Assembly (NCBI GenBank): GCA_021796435.1
Contig: JAJYXM010000016.1
Coordinates: 374,625-438,624 of the forward strand
DNA: 64,000 nucleotides
Direction of reading: 5' to 3'
Source: a bacterium
GTDB lineage: Bacteria; Patescibacteriota; Patescibacteriia; 2-12-FULL-60-25
Shown: in pieces, positions 1 to 34,142 of the stretch
Layout: each line of letters begins with the position of its first letter
Position numbering within the stretch: position 1 is the first letter of the stretch
The notes under the pieces: generated by a model
What the model was told of the DNA's origin: nothing
Databases searched by the model: none
The model's input: the letters and a program-made list of their open reading frames with translations, nothing else
Program-made: the position numbers and the translations under genes

Positions 1-292
1 TGTAACCTCTCGTAAGGTCCCTAAGGAGGTTGGCTATGCCAAGCGTTGCTCTCAGTCTCAAATCCTCGAACATTCAGCTGGTCCCGCTTCGACTTTCCGT
101 GTTCTTCGGTTCGCCGGAAGGACGGACCGTAGTGCGCATCCTGCTCTTCGCGCTCCTCATCTTCGGCATCGCAATTGGCGCCGAGGACTGCGTCGGCTAG
201 ATCTCCCTCGCCAAGCTCAGCCACCCTCGGTCCGCCAGGATCGAGGGATTACTCTTGGTTACGGGAGCATGGGCTTGGGTTATAGATGGGGG

Positions 293-322
293 TTGACTAA
301 ACAGTTGGCATCAGGCAATATA
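293..322 (+). promoter_or_regulatory. Putative sigma70-type promoter upstream of the tRNA cluster (TTGACT-17-CAATAT)
   Basis: TTGACT at 293-298, 17-nt spacer, CAATAT at 316-321, about 25 nt upstream of the first tRNA-like sequence. Read by eye. Confidence 0.3.
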
Positions 323-345
323 CGCTCACAATTTAAGACCACCAT

Positions 346-416
346 GGGTGCGTGGTGTAGCCCGGTTAACACGCCCCGGTGTCCACCGGGGAGATCGAGG
401 GTCAGTCTCGCATCCA
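346..416 (+). pseudogene. tRNA-Asp-like diverged duplicate (pseudo-tRNA; acceptor, D-arm and variable region conserved, no T-arm)
   Basis: 31 nt at 343-373 are identical to 448-478 (catGGGTGCGTGGTGTAGCCCGGTTAACACG), and AGATCGAGGG is also shared. The anticodon region is replaced by CCCCGGTGTCCACCGGGG (6-bp stem, 6-nt loop). The T-arm is missing: 12 nt where 17 are needed. A 3' strand CGCATCC could still pair with the acceptor 5' strand. Confidence 0.45.
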
Positions 417-450
417 TATAAAAACTAAAGAGAGTCCATAGTCCACGCAT

Positions 451-528
451 GGGTGCGTGGTGTAGCCCGGTTAACACGTCTCCCTGTCACGGAGAAGATC
501 GAGGGTTCGAATCCCTTCGCACCCGCCA
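451..528 (+). tRNA. tRNA-Asp (anticodon GTC), CCA encoded
   Basis: Hand-folded cloverleaf. Acceptor GGGTGCG/CGCACCC. D stem GTGT/ACAC with loop AGCCCGGTTA. Anticodon stem TCTCC/GGAGA with loop CTGTCAC, giving GTC. Variable AGATC. T-arm GAGGG-TTCGAAT-CCCTT. Discriminator G, then CCA. Confidence 0.85.
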
Positions 529-558
529 TCGCGTCAAACGCGATTACCAGAACATAAG

Positions 559-581
559 ACCGACGTTAAACGTCGGTTTTA
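559..581 (+). terminator. Intrinsic terminator after tRNA-Asp
   Basis: ACCGACG-TTAAA-CGTCGGT hairpin followed by TTTT. Confidence 0.6.
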
Positions 582-709
582 TGTATGAGGAAGGATTCGA
601 ACCAGGGAAGGGTGAAACCGTGAGGTTTCGCTTGCTGGGGGTGACCGAGCGCAGCGAGGACGAGAGGGGCGGAAGCCCCTATCGGGAGGAGCAGAGCGAC
701 GACGTGAGC

Positions 710-728
710 AATCCCTTCGCACCCGCCA
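710..728 (+). repeat. 19-nt direct repeat of the tRNA-Asp 3' end (AATCCCTTCGCACCCGCCA), exactly 200 bp downstream of the tRNA copy
   Basis: Identical to 510-528. att-core-like scar. Confidence 0.6.
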
Positions 729-737
729 TAAGAAAGA

Positions 738-761
738 CCTCGCCATCAGGCGGGGTTTTTC
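738..761 (+). terminator. Intrinsic terminator downstream of the 3'-end repeat
   Basis: CCTCGCC-ATCA-GGCGGGG hairpin followed by TTTTT. Confidence 0.55.
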
Positions 762-833
762 GTAATATGACGTATGAACGTGTCGTTTGTGCTAGCGGGA
801 TGTATAATACAGAAATCAATAACAACTAATTAT

Positions 834-2336: not shown

Positions 2337-2757
2337 TGAGGCTGAAACTAACAGGAAGAGATTGATTCGTCAATCGTCTTTTGGTTTATGTTATACTTTT
2401 TCTGCGCCAATCCACGAAGGGCAAACGAGCCAAATCCCCCTTGGCCGGCAGGAATCTCGCTGGACCCGAGAAGGAGACTGCCAAAAATTTCAGAAACAAA
2501 AGAGGCTCGAGTTGGAATGGCGAATCATTTTTGGGCAAAGAAGATGGCCCTACCCACCCACCGTCGCTGGTTTCTACGGCCAGTGGCTCATTGTCCTGCG
2601 GGTGCTTTATGCACGTCCGCCGTCTAACTTCCCCCCTTTCCTAGATCCGCTCGCAATGGGCGGATTCTCGTATCTTGGAGAAGTATCCGCTTCATTATTT
2701 TTTCAGATTGCATCAATTGTGCGGTTCTAGGCTTTGTGTTCTAATGTCCATAAGCAT

Positions 2758-3414
2758 ATGGGCAACAAATTCGAATTTAAAGGCGATTCATCGTACTTAG
2801 GCCACATGGAAAGCGGCATGTTCCATCCGCAGAGTAACGAACCTGCCTTGGGCGAAACTCCGGGTACATTGCGTTGTGCGATGGCGAACGCCATCCTTTT
2901 TGCTCGTAACCAGAATAAAGCCATAAAATGCGAATTGAACGGTGCCGTCGTCCAAGTGAAACCGGATGATACGGTCGAACTGGTGGCTCAAAAACAACGC
3001 GATGCGGTTGGATCACCCGGATATCTTGCAGCTCAAGAAAGACGAACGCAGATGTTCAATTCTAGGATAGACCAAGAATTATCGGATCTCCGGGAAGAAT
3101 TGGAGAGCCTGGACTTCGCCGACGAAGGTGCGATCATGGATTGGATGATGGATTATCTGGCGACGGTCGAAGTGAGCGGCAAGCGGGATATCGGCGGAAA
3201 GGAGATCCGGGGACTCTTCGGCAAGAACGGGTATGAATCCGACGGCGTGCTCGAGGAAAACGTAATACCGGCGGCTAAGCCACGCGCCATCATCGGTCAA
3301 TTCTTGGCTTTCCTGGATCAGGGCAAGAAACCTTCCAGGGTGTTGACTGTCGCTATCGCCCAGTGGAAAAGGGAGAGTAAAGGATCGAGTCGCTTCGCTT
3401 CAGGCCTGAATTGA
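2758..3414 (+). CDS. Hypothetical protein
   Basis: Long ORF with no recognisable motif. The start is uncertain (ORF opens at 2734). Confidence 0.4.
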   Translation: MGNKFEFKGDSSYLGHMESGMFHPQSNEPALGETPGTLRCAMANAILFARNQNKAIKCELNGAVVQVKPDDTVELVAQKQRDAVGSPGYLAAQERRTQMFNSRIDQELSDLREELESLDFADEGAIMDWMMDYLATVEVSGKRDIGGKEIRGLFGKNGYESDGVLEENVIPAAKPRAIIGQFLAFLDQGKKPSRVLTVAIAQWKRESKGSSRFASGLN

Positions 3415-3527
3415 GGATTAGACGGTACGACATCAGCTTCGGGTAAGACGGGAGAAACAGGGGCTACACTGGAGTCGAGTTGTGTCTCGACAAGATATGT
3501 ATTAAAGTCTGGAAAAGAAGCAAACAT

Positions 3528-4664
3528 ATGTCTACGACATATAAAAAGCGGGTCAGCCAAATCCTCGAGGGTACGGGCATAACGCTGAACGGCTCGGAGC
3601 CATGGGACATCCATGTATCTGATGAGCGGTTTTATCCTCGTGTCTTGTCGGACGGGTCGATCGGACTCGGCGAGTCATATATGGACGGCTGGTGGGAGTG
3701 CGATCGGATCGATGAAGCGGTTTCCCGTCTTCTCCGATACGACATACCTTCAAGGCTGAAGATAAATCCTGCCTTGGTATGGAGCGTAGTCAGCGCCAAG
3801 CTCACGAACAGACAGAGCGAAAAACGCGCTTTCCACATCGGCCAAGTACATTACGATATAGGCAATGACCTGTATCAAACCATGCTCGATAAGCGGATGA
3901 CGTACACCTGCGGTTATTGGAAATCGGCGGAAGAACCGAATCGGGCGATTACCCTGGATGAGGCGCAGGAAGCCAAACTAGATCTGGTATGCCGTAAGAT
4001 TGGGTTGAAGGCGGGTCAGCGGGTGCTTGATATCGGTTGCGGCTGGGGGAGCTTCGCGAAGTTCGCCGCGGAAAGATACGGGGCAGAGGTCGTAGGCGTC
4101 ACCGTCTCAAAGGAACAACAGAAGCTCGGAAAGGAATTGTGCAGCGGGTTGCCGGTAGAGATTCGTCTGCAGGACTATCGCGATGTCAATGAATCCTTCG
4201 ACCACGTCGTGTCTTTGGGCATGATCGAACACGTGGGCTGCAAGAACTACCGAACGATGTATCAGGTCGTCGACAGGTGCATGAAGGATGACGGTCTTTT
4301 CCTGCTGCATACGATCGGAGGGAACAAGTCAGCCCATACGACCGATCCTTGGATAGAGAAATACATCTTCCCCAACAGCATGCTGCCGTCAGTCAAGCAG
4401 TTGGCGGCTGCGGCGGAACGGATTTTCGTGATGGAGGATTGGCATAACTTCGGTACCGATTATGACAGGACGTTGATGGAATGGGACCGTAATTTCGAAA
4501 CGCATTGGGATTCGCTGAAAGACAGATATGACGAGCGCTTCCGCCGCATGTGGCGTTATTATCTGCTGGCTTGCGCCGGTTCGTTCCGTTCACGCGAAAA
4601 TCAGTTGTGGCAAATCGTGTATTCCAAAAAAGGCGTGCTCGGCGGATACGTGGCTGTCCGCTGA
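3528..4664 (+). CDS. cfa: Cyclopropane-fatty-acyl-phospholipid synthase (class I SAM methyltransferase)
   Basis: VLDIGCGWG SAM motif I. Cfa-family sequence throughout (NDLYQTMLD..., LHTIGGNKSAHTTDPWIEKYIFPNSMLPS). Confidence 0.8.
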   Translation: MSTTYKKRVSQILEGTGITLNGSEPWDIHVSDERFYPRVLSDGSIGLGESYMDGWWECDRIDEAVSRLLRYDIPSRLKINPALVWSVVSAKLTNRQSEKRAFHIGQVHYDIGNDLYQTMLDKRMTYTCGYWKSAEEPNRAITLDEAQEAKLDLVCRKIGLKAGQRVLDIGCGWGSFAKFAAERYGAEVVGVTVSKEQQKLGKELCSGLPVEIRLQDYRDVNESFDHVVSLGMIEHVGCKNYRTMYQVVDRCMKDDGLFLLHTIGGNKSAHTTDPWIEKYIFPNSMLPSVKQLAAAAERIFVMEDWHNFGTDYDRTLMEWDRNFETHWDSLKDRYDERFRRMWRYYLLACAGSFRSRENQLWQIVYSKKGVLGGYVAVR

Positions 4665-4695
4665 GATCGAACTAATTTTCTAAACTGATAAGAAC

Positions 4696-5475
4696 ATGGA
4701 TAGTCTTCATGCATATGGTCAACCGCCCTATACAGTAGCCGTGATCCACGGAGGGCCAGGAGCTAATGGTGAGATGGCTCCGGTGGCTGAAGAACTTTCA
4801 TTGGATTTTGGCGTTCTTGAACCATTGCAGACCGCGTCATCGATCGATGGGCTTGTCGAAGAGCTGAAGAAGACCGTCGAGACGAAGGCTGTGGCGCCGG
4901 CGGTGCTGATCGGACATTCTTGGGGTGCTTGGTTGGTGTGTATTTTCGCGGCGCGTCATCCAGCGCTTGTGAGGAAGCTCATCCTTGTAAGCAGTGCGCC
5001 ATTCGAAGCCGGCGGTGATGTTTCGATCGACGAAACGCGTCTGAGCCGTTTGGTCGCCGATGAAAAGGCGGAACTGGAGACGCTTTGGAATAATATGGGG
5101 GAGCCAAATGGTGACAGCCCGGAAAAGGTAAAAAAATTTTTGGATCTCCTGACGAAGGCAGACTCGTATGATCCGATGCCGAGCGACGCGATCATCGATT
5201 TCCGTTTCGATATTTTTAATAAAGTTTGGCCGGAAGCCGCGGCTTTGCGGCAGAGCGGAGAACTGTTGGAGATAGTGAAGACGATCAAGTGTCCGGTGGT
5301 CGCGATCCATGGCGATCATGATCCACACCCTGCCGAAGGAGTGAGTAAGCCGCTGTCTAAGTCAATTAAAGATTTTAGGTTCGTATTGTTGAAGCACTGT
5401 GGGCACAGGCCGTGGATAGAAAGGGAGGCAAGAGATGAGTTTTATCGCTTGCTGAAAAATGAGTTGGAGACCTAA
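4696..5475 (+). CDS. Alpha/beta-hydrolase fold protein
   Basis: GHSWG nucleophile elbow. Conserved His near the C-terminus (HCGH). Confidence 0.55.
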   Translation: MDSLHAYGQPPYTVAVIHGGPGANGEMAPVAEELSLDFGVLEPLQTASSIDGLVEELKKTVETKAVAPAVLIGHSWGAWLVCIFAARHPALVRKLILVSSAPFEAGGDVSIDETRLSRLVADEKAELETLWNNMGEPNGDSPEKVKKFLDLLTKADSYDPMPSDAIIDFRFDIFNKVWPEAAALRQSGELLEIVKTIKCPVVAIHGDHDPHPAEGVSKPLSKSIKDFRFVLLKHCGHRPWIEREARDEFYRLLKNELET

Positions 5476-5524
5476 AGATCTTAAACTCAAGCTTGTAAAA
5501 AGAAACTCCCTGGTCAGGGGAGTC

Positions 5525-29511: not shown

Positions 29512-30312
29512 TTAAAATTCACAAGTACCAAACTGTCCTCCTTCTATAATTTCATCAATTACCTTTCCCTTCCATACAATGCCTAATTGTGCATGTATTT
29601 CACTTTGTCCAATTCTTCCTGAATAAACACCAAGAAACCCTCTTATTCTGCCAATAATTGAGTCATCTTTCATTAAGCCATTTTCCATTTTATGAATACC
29701 AATTCGCTGGAAAATTACAGGGGAACCTGAAAGGCCAGATCTTGTTGCAGTATCAACTAGTAACTTTGGTAATTGGTCTTCATCTACATCAGGTTCTGTC
29801 GCGATACTACCTTTCTTCCAAATTGGTAATCCCAAATATCGAAAATCTTCAAATGGATATCCAAGAATAAATACTTCATCTGATACTTCAGGTGGAATAT
29901 CATTTTCAAAATCATAATTATTTATTGGAAAATAATGAAAAGCTTCATTTTGTGTTAATTTTATAGCCACTACATCAACTTTGTTTTTATATGCAGGATG
30001 TACCAACCAACATGGTTTTTGAAATTCATCATCATGGTAAAGGTTGATTATTGTTTTGTTTGCACTACCGTCTTTTTGTTTTAATCTGAAGTAAGTAACA
30101 AAAACTGTAGGGATCCCAGAGTGTTTAGAGAGTGGTTCGCCTGAAATAGGATTTCTTCCAGTGGCATTATGCCAGTTAGTAATTAAATAGATTTCTTCAT
30201 TGTATTTATAGAGAAAAGAAGAGGCGGTCGAAAATATTGCATCACTATCAGAACGCCCTATTGCGATTTGGTGTGTAACTTGGGAAAGGTAATCTGGTTT
30301 AATTATATTCAT
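29512..30312 (-). CDS. Cytoplasmic trypsin-like (S1/chymotrypsin-fold) serine protease, encoded in an AT-rich islet
   Basis: LITNWHNA (His), VDVVAIKL (Asp) and TRSGLSGSPVI (GDSGGP-like Ser) triad motifs. No signal peptide. GC visibly far below the flanks. Confidence 0.55.
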   Translation of the reverse strand: MNIIKPDYLSQVTHQIAIGRSDSDAIFSTASSFLYKYNEEIYLITNWHNATGRNPISGEPLSKHSGIPTVFVTYFRLKQKDGSANKTIINLYHDDEFQKPCWLVHPAYKNKVDVVAIKLTQNEAFHYFPINNYDFENDIPPEVSDEVFILGYPFEDFRYLGLPIWKKGSIATEPDVDEDQLPKLLVDTATRSGLSGSPVIFQRIGIHKMENGLMKDDSIIGRIRGFLGVYSGRIGQSEIHAQLGIVWKGKVIDEIIEGGQFGTCEF

Positions 30313-30546
30313 ATTTCAACTTACGCTAATTAAAGCCCCCCAAATGTCTGACAACGTTTCCCGATGAAGCGAAGTTTTTGATTTTCTTCCTTGATTTTAA
30401 TTAATTAAGAAAAGAAAAGCAAAAATTTGGGTCGAAAGAAAAGTATATTCCTTATTAATATTTCTCTTTAAGCGAAGCGCAAGAGAAAGTTTAAATTAAG
30501 ATATTTTTCTGGAGCCGCTTATCGCGGTGTTAGATGATGTAAATTT

Positions 30547-30921
30547 TTATTTTTTAATATTAAATGCTTTAATAAACGATGATTCTTCAATTTTTGAAGT
30601 ATTAATACCTAGATCTTTACACATTGCTTTAAACAATTCGTATAACCTATCGTTAGCTAAGTGATTTTGACCAGATGTTAATGTGTCGTGTAGATTTTTT
30701 ACCTTATTTTGAATATCTGGTGAATTAGAAAAGACAACAAATATTTCATTTAGTGTTTTAGTGAAATTATCTCCAGACAAATTATATCTGTATCCAACGA
30801 AATTTCTTAAAACATCCATTTTTGTTCTTTTTTTATCTGAACGTTTATGGTAAAAAATCGAAATAAGAACGCCGATAATACCAGATATTAACGATGATGT
30901 TATTATTAAAAATGTGTTCAT
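30547..30921 (-). CDS. Small single-pass membrane protein (124 aa), partner of the islet protease
   Basis: N-terminal TM (FLIITSSLISGIIGVLISIFY), then a basic stretch and a helical soluble domain. Extremely AT-rich. Confidence 0.45.
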   Translation of the reverse strand: MNTFLIITSSLISGIIGVLISIFYHKRSDKKRTKMDVLRNFVGYRYNLSGDNFTKTLNEIFVVFSNSPDIQNKVKNLHDTLTSGQNHLANDRLYELFKAMCKDLGINTSKIEESSFIKAFNIKK

Positions 30922-31095
30922 AAAATTAAAAAATAAAAATTTATTTCATCTAACTAGCTTTTATACGACATTTTTACCCATAAGCGTCCAGCTTCTGCAT
31001 CTTAGGCGAAATATCGGTGGCGGTAAAGGTGGGTTTCGTTGCGGGTCGTGGACAGGATTTTTTTGCCAAATAACACTGTTTTTTAGCTGTCTCCT

Positions 31096-31842
31096 CTAAT
31101 TTTCAACGTATCCTCCATCCACGACAAAGGTCGAGCGGGTGATGAAACTGGCGTCATCCGAGACTAAGAACATGATCGCCTGTGCTATCTCTTCGGGTTT
31201 GCCGAACCTGCCAAGCAGTATCTTCTTCGTTTCGCTTTCCACGTAATCCTTATCAAGGTCTTTGTTTATTTCGGTTTCGACCCAGCCCGGCGCGACTGCG
31301 TTGACTCGGATGGTCGGCGCGAGTTGCGTCGCAAGATTCTTGGTCAAGCTGATGACGCCGGATTTCGATGCATCATAATCCATGGAGTCGGGACTCAACG
31401 TGTCGATTCCGTTCGTAGAAGCGATGTTCACGATGTTGCCTGAACCGTTCTTGAGCATATGCTGCGAGGCATATTTAGAACATAGGTATGTACCGATGAG
31501 GTTGACGTCTAGAGTCCTCTTCCATTGTTCGACGGTTCGTTCCTCAAAAGGGACGTCATAGACGATGCCTGCGTTGTTGACCAAGATATCGATCTTACCG
31601 AAAGCCTCGATACATTTTTCGACCATGGATTTAACCTGGTCTTCTTGGGCGACGTCGGCCTGTACGATCATCGCTACGCCATTCATTTTTACAATCTCGT
31701 CAGCTACCTCTTGGGCCCGTTGTTTTTCTTTCTCGAAGTTTATGACCACTTTTGCGCCTTCTTTGGCGAAAAGCAGGGCGGTGGCTCTGCCGATGCCTCG
31801 GCTCGCGCCTGTTATGAGCGCGACTTTGTCGTTCAGTTTCAT
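31096..31842 (-). CDS. Short-chain dehydrogenase/reductase (3-oxoacyl-ACP reductase FabG-like)
   Basis: TGASRGIG Rossmann motif. NNAG. YxxxK catalytic motif (YDASK). Confidence 0.75.
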   Translation of the reverse strand: MKLNDKVALITGASRGIGRATALLFAKEGAKVVINFEKEKQRAQEVADEIVKMNGVAMIVQADVAQEDQVKSMVEKCIEAFGKIDILVNNAGIVYDVPFEERTVEQWKRTLDVNLIGTYLCSKYASQHMLKNGSGNIVNIASTNGIDTLSPDSMDYDASKSGVISLTKNLATQLAPTIRVNAVAPGWVETEINKDLDKDYVESETKKILLGRFGKPEEIAQAIMFLVSDDASFITRSTFVVDGGYVEN

Positions 31843-31976
31843 AAAATGTTTAGTCTATCCTTAGCTTAGTCGAATTATGTGGTGTGGTAAAGATAGATTG
31901 GCGAAATAGCTGATGGTTTTAGATCCCGGCTCGCGCGACGCTTGGCCGGGATGACATATTGGGTTAACATGGCGCC

Positions 31977-34142
31977 ATGTCGGTTTTCGTATTACAGGAT
32001 GGCGGCGTGCCGGTTTCACGCCGTATAGATTATTCCCGTGAATTGAATCAGGAACAGCTGGATGTGGTGCTGAACGGCGATGGGCCGTGCTTGGTGTTGG
32101 CTGGAGCCGGGTCGGGCAAGACACGCACCGTGACGTATCGCGTGGCCTATCTTCTGGAGCAGGGCGTAGATCCGCAATCCATCATGCTCCTGACCTTCAC
32201 CAACAAGGCGGCGCGCGAGATGATGCAGCGCGTCGAATCCCTGCTTGGCCAGACGGCGCGCGGCGTGTGGGGCGGGACGTTCCATTCGACGGCGAACCGC
32301 ATCCTGCGATCGGGGCATGCCGTGTCAGATTATGGACGCAACTTCACGATCCTGGACCAGGAAGATTCGCAGAGCCTGATCAAGGCTGTGATGAAGGAAC
32401 TGAAGATCGATCCGAAAGCGCGCAGGTTCCCGACCGCTGCGGTGCTGCAGAATGTAGTATCTTTCGCGCGTAACACGCTGCAGAGCGTGGGGAGCGCCTT
32501 GGAACTTAAGCATGAGAATTTTTTGCCGCTCCTGTCCGATATCGAAGCCGTGGCCGAAATCTATGCGCGGCGCAAACGTGAAGCGAACGTGATGGATTTC
32601 GATGATCTGCTCGCCAATTGGCTCGGCCTGCTGAACCATCCCGATATCGGTCCGGCGATTGCCGGTCGGTTCAAGTATGTCCTGGTCGATGAGTATCAGG
32701 ACACGAATGCGATCCAGGCGGCGATCATCCGACAATTAGGTGGGGTGCATGGGAATGTACTCGTCGTCGGTGACGATGCGCAGTCCATCTACGCCTTCCG
32801 CGGCGCGGATGTGAAGAACATACTGGATTTCCCGAACGAGTGGCCGAAGGCGAAGATCTTCAAGCTGTTGACGAACTACCGCAGCGCGCCGGAGATACTC
32901 GAGCTCGCCAACGAATCGCTGCAGCACAACACCAAGCAGTTCCAAAAGGATCTGCGGGCCGTACGAGGGGCGGGCGTCAAACCGAACATGGTCGCCGTCG
33001 CTTCGGCCAGTCAGGAAGCGCGTTATGTCGCGGAACAGATCCTGTCTTTGCGTGCGCAAGGCACGGCTCTCGGCAACATGGCCGTACTCTTCCGTTCGTC
33101 GGCGCATTCGCAGGCGTTGGAATTCGAATTGATGAAACGCGACGTGCCGTATGAATACCGCGGCGGCATGAAGTTCTTCGAGCGCGCCCACATCAAAGAT
33201 GCGTTGTCGCATCTGCGGGTCATCCATAACGTACATGATGAAGTCGCTTGGTTGCGCATCCTGAATCTGCAGACGGGAATCGGCGCAGCGACGGCCGGAA
33301 CTTTGGTCAACCGTATCCGGGGCATGGAAAGCATCGAGATGGTCTTGGATAAGGCGGGTCAGGAATTGCCGTCACGCGCGACACAGGGATTCCAAGTCTT
33401 GGTCGAGATGGAGCGCGACATGCTGGCGCAAGCGCCGGCTCCGGCTTTCATGCTACGTACTTTCTTGCAGTCGCCATACCGCGATTATCTTGAGCGTGAA
33501 TATCCTGATTGGCGTGATCGTTTCGAGGATCTGGAGCAATTGGTCGTGTTCGCCGAGAACTATCATGATCTTTCGTCTTTTTTGGCGGACATCGCATTGT
33601 ACGATGAGGTGGCGGCGAAGCGTGAAGAGGCCGATGCTTCGGGGGAAAGCGAGAGGATAATCCTTTCCACCATACATCAAGCCAAAGGTCTTGAGTGGGA
33701 TACGGTGTTCATCATCCATCTGGCGGATTCGTTCTTCCCGAACAAGCGGGCTATGGGCGAAGAAGGGGGGATAGAGGAAGAACGGCGTCTGTTTTATGTC
33801 GCTGTGACACGTGCCAAGCAACGGTTGTTCTTGTGTTATCCAGTGACTGCAGGATATGACGCGCTCATGTTCAATCAGCCGTCGCTTTTTATTGAAGAGC
33901 TTTCGCCGCGCTTGATGGAGAGGATCGAAGTCAGGGAAGAGGGGGCGAGTCGTACCGCGTACCGCGCACCGCGTACGTCAGATGATTGGAGTTGGGATGA
34001 AGGTTACGAAGAACCATCGATCGAAATAGATAGGTACGGGAACAGGAATCAGGGTTCGGCGAGCAAGACGGTGTGGAAGTCGTCGACGAGTAATGACAAG
34101 AAGAAACCCTCGTCATTCTTGAGGGATGTAGATGAGTTGTAA
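31977..34142 (+). CDS. uvrD: UvrD/PcrA-type superfamily-1 DNA helicase
   Basis: LNQEQLDVV...GPCLVLAGAGSGKTRT (Walker A). DEYQDTN. Other SF1 motifs. Confidence 0.8.
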   Translation: MSVFVLQDGGVPVSRRIDYSRELNQEQLDVVLNGDGPCLVLAGAGSGKTRTVTYRVAYLLEQGVDPQSIMLLTFTNKAAREMMQRVESLLGQTARGVWGGTFHSTANRILRSGHAVSDYGRNFTILDQEDSQSLIKAVMKELKIDPKARRFPTAAVLQNVVSFARNTLQSVGSALELKHENFLPLLSDIEAVAEIYARRKREANVMDFDDLLANWLGLLNHPDIGPAIAGRFKYVLVDEYQDTNAIQAAIIRQLGGVHGNVLVVGDDAQSIYAFRGADVKNILDFPNEWPKAKIFKLLTNYRSAPEILELANESLQHNTKQFQKDLRAVRGAGVKPNMVAVASASQEARYVAEQILSLRAQGTALGNMAVLFRSSAHSQALEFELMKRDVPYEYRGGMKFFERAHIKDALSHLRVIHNVHDEVAWLRILNLQTGIGAATAGTLVNRIRGMESIEMVLDKAGQELPSRATQGFQVLVEMERDMLAQAPAPAFMLRTFLQSPYRDYLEREYPDWRDRFEDLEQLVVFAENYHDLSSFLADIALYDEVAAKREEADASGESERIILSTIHQAKGLEWDTVFIIHLADSFFPNKRAMGEEGGIEEERRLFYVAVTRAKQRLFLCYPVTAGYDALMFNQPSLFIEELSPRLMERIEVREEGASRTAYRAPRTSDDWSWDEGYEEPSIEIDRYGNRNQGSASKTVWKSSTSNDKKKPSSFLRDVDEL

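Follow-up and report, generated by a model that had tools for sequence, protein, structure and literature searches.

We analysed a 64,000-nucleotide stretch of a Patescibacteria genome (assembly GCA_021796435.1, contig JAJYXM010000016.1, positions 374,625 to 438,624; here called the window and numbered from its first letter), near the start of which a tRNA-Asp gene is accompanied by two exact repeats of parts of itself. ARAGORN finds a single tRNA in the window, tRNA-Asp(GTC) at 451-528. Upstream of it, positions 343-373 are identical to 448-478 over 31 nt, with similarity that reaches 41 nt at 90% and a second similar block at 384-402 versus 488-506 (84%); downstream, the end of the tRNA and the base that follows it (510-529) recur exactly at 710-729. 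A sequence-only reading of the window had pointed to both repeats. The first is as it described, and the second is 20 nt long, one base more than the 19 nt it gave, which run through the CCA (510-528 and 710-728). Each repeat pattern is present exactly twice in the 64 kb at three mismatches or fewer, while dinucleotide-preserving shuffles give an expectation of 0.00-0.01, so that for both identities the chance expectation is about zero. Both repeats are real, and they are two separate features with different histories.

The 20-nt repeat bounds an insert of 181 bp (529-709) that is non-coding and whose parts are collected in Table 1. Directly 3' of the CCA it opens with a small hairpin, of a kind also found after the CCA at three loci of relatives (L085, L090 and L116). 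The longer palindrome that follows, T1, resembles a bidirectional terminator; it folds at -28.8 kcal/mol (z -5.4), and the terminator scan calls it on the minus strand. Beyond T1, which is separated from the second copy of the repeat by about 125 nt, stands an imperfect inverted copy of the 3' part of the tRNA, and beyond the second copy of the repeat an intrinsic terminator, T2. Within the insert the stretch GGGAAGG/GGGTG (605-614) is predicted to pair with CCCTTC...CACCC (714-724) of the displaced tRNA end, leaving GCCA unpaired. The sequence-only reading had assigned each tRNA-derived piece a terminator of its own; this holds for the tRNA (552-584) and for the 3' repeat (737-761) and fails for the upstream copy, which is without one.

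Comparison with the closest relative found, GCA_031082005.1 (L111; pyruvate kinase 92% and FtsZ 94% identical), gives insight into how the insert is placed. L111 has the same promoter-like block, degenerate upstream copy and tRNA, and no second tRNA 3' end. Immediately 3' of its tRNA stands GCAGAAATCCCGCGAAAGCGGGGTTTTTGATT, which aligns with repeat 2 and T2 of the window (710-760, 78%, with GCGGGGTTTTT in common) and not with T1. At another locus, L091, a T2-like terminator stands after an orphan tRNA 3' end and is 82% identical to window 710-760, again with GCGGGGTTTTT shared. Because the tRNA of L111 runs straight into a T2-like terminator, 529-709 is extra DNA between the tRNA 3' end and its original terminator, with the 20-bp duplication as its bounds, and T2 is probably the ancestral terminator of the tRNA-Asp gene. 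The earlier description of a reconstituted tRNA with a displaced 3' core is in keeping with this. The whole tRNA-Asp cassette of L111 (16441-16708, corresponding to window 288-761) is inverted relative to the cluster of FtsZ, pyruvate kinase (PK) and pyruvate phosphate dikinase (PPDK); its orientation also varies at L088, L114 and L116/L117, and it has apparently been inverted again and again in this group of relatives.

A scan of JGI metagenomes with the 19-mer yielded 25 loci, 17 of them with a tRNA-Asp, which in 15 cases is identical to that of the window. L086 and L088, from two samples and of the same sequence, carry tRNA-Asp, a T1 hairpin, 155 nt, the exact 19-mer and T2, the repeats being spaced 174 nt apart. 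The element of L100 is longer (about 285 nt) and degenerate at its end, in L102 and L105 only the left-end motif is present, and at L106 an element is possible and is cut off by the contig end. Analogous element forms are thus present in two or three other Patescibacteria lineages. Wherever these loci have an element or a left-end motif, the sequence after T1 is an imperfect inverted tRNA 3' end, and at L088, L100 and L102 this inverted copy is stronger than in the window. The right-end motif of the window, GAGCGACGACGTGAGC, is common to L088, and in both GAGCGACG..GTGAG abuts the repeat; its score was reached by 37 of 5000 shuffles (p about 0.007) and by none of 3591 other pairs from the window. 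Among 58 tRNAs in the 1.6 Mb of loci that we fetched, the 3' tail is repeated downstream only at tRNA-Asp (in the window and L086/L088) and at tyrT/tyrV of Escherichia coli. No second copy of the element is found in the 64-kb window or the 1.6 Mb of fetched loci, a search that covered about 80 kb of this genome, and on this scope we rejected the idea of a multicopy miniature inverted-repeat transposable element.

Two further arrangements were noted at these metagenome loci. In L102 and L105 the tRNA terminator is followed by TGGCGGGGGAGAACGCGGATCCGGATC, an inverted copy of the whole tRNA 3' end, CCA included, at about 70% similarity, with no second direct repeat within 5-13 kb, so the direct repeat is not required for a tRNA end, a terminator and an inverted tRNA end to occur together as a palindrome. 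In L085 (around 620-760) and in L090, which has the same sequence on the minus strand, the tRNA-Asp and its post-CCA hairpin CGTCGCTCGCGAGCGACG are followed by five tandem 28-nt units (CAGCGAACGAGGTCGAGTTGCCTCTTTC); these have no spacers and are therefore not CRISPR-like.

The relatives and an independent assembly also bear on whether contigs were mis-joined at shared k-mers, which would make the arrangement an artefact. In the Logan assembly of the same sample (SRR13201255) one contig stops at window 372 and the next begins at 449, so that the contigs break exactly at the 31-mer; a k=31 graph is, however, expected to break at a true repeat. From 449 onward a Logan contig matches the window at 100% identity through the tRNA, the insert and repeat 2, the degenerate copy and the tRNA are arranged alike in the independent genome L111, and L086 and L088, from two other samples, show the same 3'-repeat arrangement. 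We therefore attach practically no weight to a mis-assembly. A decayed tandem array would be a biological route to the same picture: of three tRNA-Asp genes, the first would have become 346-416, and of the third only the last 20 nt would survive. Arrays of tandem tRNA genes are common, and the upstream copy is truly a decayed tandem paralogue, as described below. The supposed third copy, however, is identical over 20 of 20 positions and then drops abruptly to no identity at a position in the T-loop; no residual similarity to the 5' two-thirds of the tRNA is found in 651-709; the 200-nt interval, with T1 and an inverted tRNA-end copy, is unlike a tRNA spacer; and L111 has the first copy and not the third. 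We consider an array of three genes very improbable.

The organization downstream of the tRNA recalls the tRNA-linked repeats (TLRs) of E. coli, of which 22 are described at ten loci and whose hallmark is a stretch of 18-19 bp that matches the 3' end of the preceding tRNA or rRNA exactly (PMC8144298). The literature on them extends from Egan & Landy (1978) through Bosl & Kersten (1991) and Rudd (1999) and is summarised in PMC8144298. At rrnB the TLR (rrB, or RrB small RNA) has terminator T1 on one side and T2 on the other; its RNA arises when transcription reads through T1, and processing takes place near the repeat. GGA motifs allow RrA/B/F to bind Hfq and CsrA (PMC8144298). The function of the tRNA-linked TLRs is not known, an early claim of a role of RtT in the stringent response having been withdrawn (PMC8144298).

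The window element has two of the features by which TLRs are recognized. It lies directly 3' of a stable-RNA gene on the same strand (529-729 after 451-528, both on the plus strand), and its last 18-19 bp are the 3' end of the upstream tRNA (710-728 = 510-528). The Rfam model of RtT RNA (RF00391), run in E-value mode, matches 592-728 over its full length (model 1-130) at 28.7 bits (E 0.009). Genuine RtT units reach 133-137 bits in our calibration, and rrB, an accepted TLR, obtains a partial match of 17 bits; because of the latter, a full-length match of 28.7 bits is within the range that a distant TLR could give. In the tyrT/tyrV sequences that we fetched, the 178-bp units end in AATCCTTCCCCCACCACCA, the last 19 nt of tRNA-Tyr from A58, and their structured part opens with GGGGAAGGAT, which is complementary to the tRNA-Tyr end. 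The complement of the tRNA-Asp end is found likewise in the window (GGGAAGG / GGGTG, 605-614) and in L088 (CGAAGGG).

The likeness to the RtT units of tyrT/tyrV extends to several points: the orientation directly 3' of the tRNA, a unit length of 174-200 bp in Patescibacteria against 178 bp in E. coli, an end formed by the last 19 nt of the element's own tRNA from A58 (AATCC...) through CCA, a 5' part complementary to the T-stem and acceptor 3' strand, and a purine-rich interior with GAGCGA motifs and a central GC hairpin. The two differ in their tRNA (tRNA-Asp in Patescibacteria, tRNA-Tyr in Enterobacterales), in number (a single unit in the window, 3.14 tandem units in E. coli), in the strong T1 hairpin after the tRNA, which the tyrT units are without, and in coding content, since the window element has no conserved tpr-like open reading frame (ORF). 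A short tpr-like peptide was considered and set aside: the frames of L088 (MRGRMR) and L102 (MWRGRTR) start as that of E. coli does, that of L100 is frame-shifted and that of the window differs, so that conservation of the start, if any, would be at the nucleotide level. The rrnB sequence of E. coli, which runs from the 5S end through T1, the TLR and an 18-nt repeat to T2, is the closer parallel in layout, both loci having a stable-RNA 3' end, T1, about 110-125 nt, an exact repeat of 18-20 nt and T2. There the upstream gene is a 5S rRNA and not a tRNA, no sequence similarity to the window element is detectable, and the Hfq and CsrA partners of RrA/B/F are not implied for it. Taken together, these comparisons make the downstream element probably a new member of the TLR kind in a new phylum.

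The upstream copy (346-416) has a different character. Its acceptor 5' strand and D arm are identical to those of the true tRNA-Asp over 31 bases. The anticodon arm is replaced by a perfect GC hairpin with a 6-bp stem (374-391), as the sequence-only reading had it, and 3' of this hairpin 11 bases (AGATCGAGGGT) again match the tRNA. The T arm, which that reading took to be lost, is in part retained: the 5' strand of the T-stem is kept to 402, and the T-loop and T-stem 3' strand are shorter by about 4 nt, giving a T arm of about 13 nt in place of 17. The acceptor 3' strand CGCATCC (409-415) pairs with GGGTGCG to form a 7-bp acceptor stem, and the CCA has been lost, with ATA in its place. The copy folds at -33.3 kcal/mol (z -2.4). 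ARAGORN makes no tRNA call on it, and the Rfam tRNA model gives no match at E<=10, even within a 103-nt search; with no detector call, a 6-nt and not a 7-nt loop on the anticodon arm and an incomplete T arm, it does not qualify as a functional tRNA of another isotype, an outcome the sequence-only reading had allowed for. We also rejected the idea that 346-416 and repeat 2 are the halves of one tRNA split by an insertion that carried a full tRNA; the copy keeps its own acceptor 3' strand and that of L111 keeps the T-loop TTCGAA, so both are full-length.

The copy is unevenly diverged. Differences from the true tRNA number about 10 in the 17 positions of the anticodon arm and none in the 42 positions of the flanking tRNA-derived parts (Fisher p 3e-7). 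Between the window and L111 the first 60 nt of the copy are identical at 59 positions and the GC hairpin at 18 of 18, while identity is 84% in the promoter block and 55% in the T-arm remnant and spacer. Ordinary tRNA pseudogenes or tandem paralogues resemble the copy in its 42 identical positions and its loss of the CCA, T arm and anticodon loop geometry; they differ in that the changes here are clustered in one arm, which has become a perfect hairpin kept in full in a second genome. This pattern hints at constraint or gene conversion and not at free decay. A single tRNA-Asp is found in L093, L098, L099, L100, L113, L114, L116 and L118, which share the FtsZ...PK(-PPDK) neighbourhood and belong to eight to ten more distant lineages. 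With these single genes in distant relatives and the copy present in L111, the duplication is therefore confined to the window/L111 clade and older than the split between them.

The 5' part of the locus suggests that the copy is transcribed with the tRNA. TTGACT and GGCAATATACGCTCACAA of the putative promoter block are kept in L111. The promoter scanner places its own, single promoter-like site at 305-332 (TTGGCA-16-CACAAT) and finds none between the two tRNA copies. Because the sole promoter-like site is 5' of the copy, in a block conserved in L111, 346-416 is probably co-transcribed as the 5' part of the tRNA-Asp precursor.

We propose, with a probability of roughly 0.6, that the locus is one tRNA-Asp transcription unit that has received two unrelated additions, a degenerate tRNA copy upstream and a TLR-like element downstream. 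The proposal builds on what is observed, namely the repeats, the hairpins, their presence or absence in relatives and the architectural match with TLRs. A tandem duplication of tRNA-Asp before the split of the window and L111 lineages would have provided the promoter-proximal copy, which then became a degenerate tRNA-like leader. A single promoter would drive this copy, the tRNA-Asp and, upon read-through of T1, the element ending at T2. With the last 19 nt of tRNA-Asp, including CCA, at its 3' end and paired internally, the element would, by analogy with the E. coli TLRs, be trimmed and protected as a tRNA end is, and its product would be a stable by-product RNA of about 120-190 nt. The 20-bp direct repeats would allow the 200-bp unit to be easily deleted or amplified, and such repeat-mediated loss and gain would explain why some relatives have the unit and others do not, and why E. 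coli has 3.14 tandem copies. The first duplication of the tRNA end may have come about through site-specific recombination at the T-loop or through some replication or repair event.

Several observations weigh against this proposal. The RtT match of 28.7 bits is below the gathering score of 45, at which nothing in the whole window is matched, and the RtT model does not detect the elements of L086 or L100. The cores of the window, L088, L100 and E. coli units have no significant similarity in unanchored pairwise alignment (z 2.5 for the window element against the E. coli unit, which is not significant), and a multiple alignment of the three Patescibacteria elements shows divergence too great for covariation analysis. 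The likeness to the E. coli TLRs may thus be convergent or purely architectural and not due to common descent. Furthermore, the E. coli TLRs have been known since 1978 without agreement on their origin (PMC8144298), so that filing the element among them names it and does not explain it. Finally, the empty site of L111 lies in an inverted cassette, and the comparison of before and after is not perfectly clean.

Integration by a mobile element has to be considered alongside this proposal. Tyrosine integrases acting at tRNA 3' ends leave duplications of the attachment (att) site, attL and attR, and the gene-less derivatives of such insertions are remnants of the cis-mobilizable element (CIME) type. 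The sequence-only reading had suggested an att-site scar of this sort. An island or prophage would have entered tRNA-Asp at an att site running from the T-loop to the 3' end, and an internal deletion would have removed the integrase and the cargo, leaving a CIME-like remainder in which the intact tRNA is attL, 710-729 is attR and the roughly 180 bp between them come from the two ends of the island. We regard this course of events as the main rival to our proposal and as rather unlikely. The locus does resemble an attL/attR pair, with an intact tRNA on the left, the displaced 3' end and the original terminator on the right, and between the tRNA 3' repeats 181 bp that are absent from the empty site of L111.

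Relatives supply further material for the att-scar reading. On contig Ga0265297_10000356 (L108/L101) a distance of 12.4 kb separates the tRNA-Asp from a 26-nt repeat, GGTTCGAATCCCTTCGCACCCGCCAT, and a tyrosine integrase is encoded between them. This 12.4-kb island encodes a Phage_integrase protein (Pfam 2.8e-27), an SNase-domain protein, a 693-aa reverse transcriptase and a DUF4145 protein. At L089 a HicB/HicA pair is followed by a 27-nt tRNA end, and at L091 an AT-rich segment precedes the tRNA end and the T2-like terminator. From the L108/L101 island and the HicB/HicA island end of L089 it follows that tRNA-Asp is a real att site in this group. The 12.4-kb island (contig 85074-97530; L108 3818-5065, L101 4104-4129) looks like a defence island. 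At L089 (582-1144) the HicB/HicA pair stands immediately before the orphan tRNA-Asp 3' end and its terminator, probably as the right end of another island.

At the window locus itself, the expected companions of such an event are missing. Pfam searches of the neighbouring ORFs and of part of the window ORFs, together with tblastn, find no recombinase or transposase from -16.7 kb to +63 kb, and tblastn with the L108 integrase finds nothing at E <1 in the window or L110. The window was thus rightly described as without an integrase, as far as ORFs tested by Pfam and tblastn extend, and the suggestion that one might lie upstream is not borne out in the 16.7 kb 5' of the window. The view of tRNA-Asp as an integration hotspot is accordingly right for the relatives, with their 12.4-kb island and HicAB end, and finds no mobile gene in its favour at this locus.

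The boundaries and contents of the insert differ as well. The island repeats start 3-7 nt earlier in the T arm, those of L101 and L089 being 26-27 nt long from (G)GTTCG (G52/G53) and that of L091 starting at TTCG, whereas AATCC (A58) is the starting point in the window, L088 and E. coli RtT; relative to the islands, the boundary in the window is shifted 5-6 nt into the T-loop. The insert, at only 181 bp, shares no sequence with the ends of the L108/L101 island, and its left end carries an inverted partial tRNA-end copy, unlike an attL/attR pair. Units of similar size with common right-end and inverted tRNA-end motifs occur in separate lineages, which would be unexpected from independent random deletions. 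As a putative phage attP, the 19-mer has no match among 2.9 million viral contigs. BLAST searches of phage records with the first 3 kb of the window, the insert and the E. coli RtT unit as queries, and of E. coli genomes with window 300-800, gave no relevant match; what they returned were unrelated tRNA-Asp genes, short chance matches and, from a Salmonella record classed with the phages, an annotated RtT RNA. The upstream copy, which the sequence-only reading had made part of the scar, is a full-length degenerate paralogue and is present in L111, which has no 3' repeat. For this half of the locus a relative shows the same arrangement without adjacent mobile DNA, as an ancient duplication would. 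The scar reading thus retains the repeat that bounds inserted DNA, and has against it the lack of an integrase, the small insert, the A58 boundary and the unrelated 5' copy.

A TLR-like element in a transcription unit of this kind has implications beyond the locus. The presence of TLR architecture in a distant phylum of reduced genomes suggests that it can arise or spread outside the enterics, and the empty site of the relative suggests that the element behaves as a unit of insertion or deletion whose limit is the tRNA 3' end. In annotation, a prophage or island scar should not be taken as proven by a short 3'-end repeat beside a tRNA alone. A more speculative extension, to which we give little credence, is that TLR and RtT units form a cross-phylum class of non-coding elements at A58 of stable-RNA 3' ends, with the upstream copy a selected leader RNA. 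If so, each such unit would insert or be copied at A58, bringing its own terminator and an inverted tRNA-end copy, and the filled site of the window against the empty site of a relative at 92% identity would be the first before-and-after evidence of the discrete gain or loss of one.

Table 1. Features of the tRNA-Asp locus (window coordinates).
Feature	Position	Strand	Basis
Promoter-like and leader block: TTGACT 294-299, about 17 nt, CAATAT 317-322	294..342	+	putative; conserved in L111
Degenerate tandem tRNA-Asp paralogue, tRNA-like	346..416	+	repeat, fold; fails ARAGORN and Rfam tRNA
GC hairpin CCCCGG-TGTCCA-CCGGGG in place of anticodon arm	374..391	+	6-bp stem, 6-nt loop
tRNA-Asp(GTC) gene, CCA encoded	451..528	+	ARAGORN; Rfam tRNA 67 bits
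Direct repeat copy 1: tRNA A58 to A76 and one base	510..529	+	exact repeat search
Small hairpin TCGCGTCAAACGCGA directly 3' of CCA	529..543	+	fold
T1: 16-bp palindromic hairpin with flanking A and T runs, left part of insert	552..584	.	94% complementary, fold
Imperfect inverted copy of tRNA 3' part, TGAGGAAGGATTCGAACC vs GGTTCGAATCCCTTCGCA	586..603	-	83% complementary to 504-521
Body of TLR-like element	592..728	+	sub-threshold full-length Rfam RtT match
Direct repeat copy 2: displaced tRNA 3' end	710..729	+	exact repeat search
T2: intrinsic terminator GACCTCGCC-ATCA-GGCGGGGTTTTT, GC stem and T-run	737..761	+	-21.7 kcal/mol, z -5.4

Apart from its repeats the locus is ordinary: it comprises a working tRNA-Asp and a dead copy and shows no mobile genes. 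The 16.7 kb 5' of the window encode a giant surface protein, YbeY, DAGK, FtsA, FtsZ, NrdR, an HtrA-like protease, pyruvate kinase, PPDK and a DNA-alkylation-repair protein; the initial 12 kb 3' of the locus encode small hypothetical proteins, an HAD phosphatase, a CMAS methyltransferase, a hydrolase, VanW and others. The best matches of the CMAS methyltransferase, at 65-71%, are metagenome-assembled genomes labelled Patescibacteria or Candidatus Uhrbacteria, and homologues of the pyruvate kinase are labelled likewise. We tried the CMAS gene as a guide to synteny and abandoned it: the 80 loci obtained come from many phyla at 56-71%, and tRNA-Asp was found in none of the 14 best Patescibacteria-type loci scanned.

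Two blocks of the window, 1152-2435 (a 158-aa protein and the HAD phosphatase) and 2667-5518 (a 218-aa protein, CMAS and an alpha/beta hydrolase), are absent from the syntenic region of L111, and neither is bounded by a tRNA repeat; the scatter of the best CMAS matches (56-71%) across many phyla suggests acquired genes. Between them, the 230-nt block 2436-2666 is 87-92% identical to L111 17455-17686, with flanking protein genes at about 77-78%. It has no Rfam match and no fold signal on either strand (z -0.2, +1.0); its differences show weak codon periodicity (13/7/7), and one frame is open throughout, within a doubtful 194-aa ORF (2146-2730).

Elsewhere, the region 30000-32000 has a GC content of 0.395 against about 0.54 in the rest of the window and includes a weak trypsin-like ORF (29512-30312, minus strand), an apparently non-coding gap and a short-chain dehydrogenase gene (31096-31842, minus strand). 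Just 5' of the tRNA promoter block, a 54-aa hydrophobic ORF (36-200) has a strong AAGGAGG ribosome-binding site and is followed by a hairpin (224-247); L111 has a different gene at this position, and the exact protein is recorded in several assemblies, including contigs of >1 Mb.

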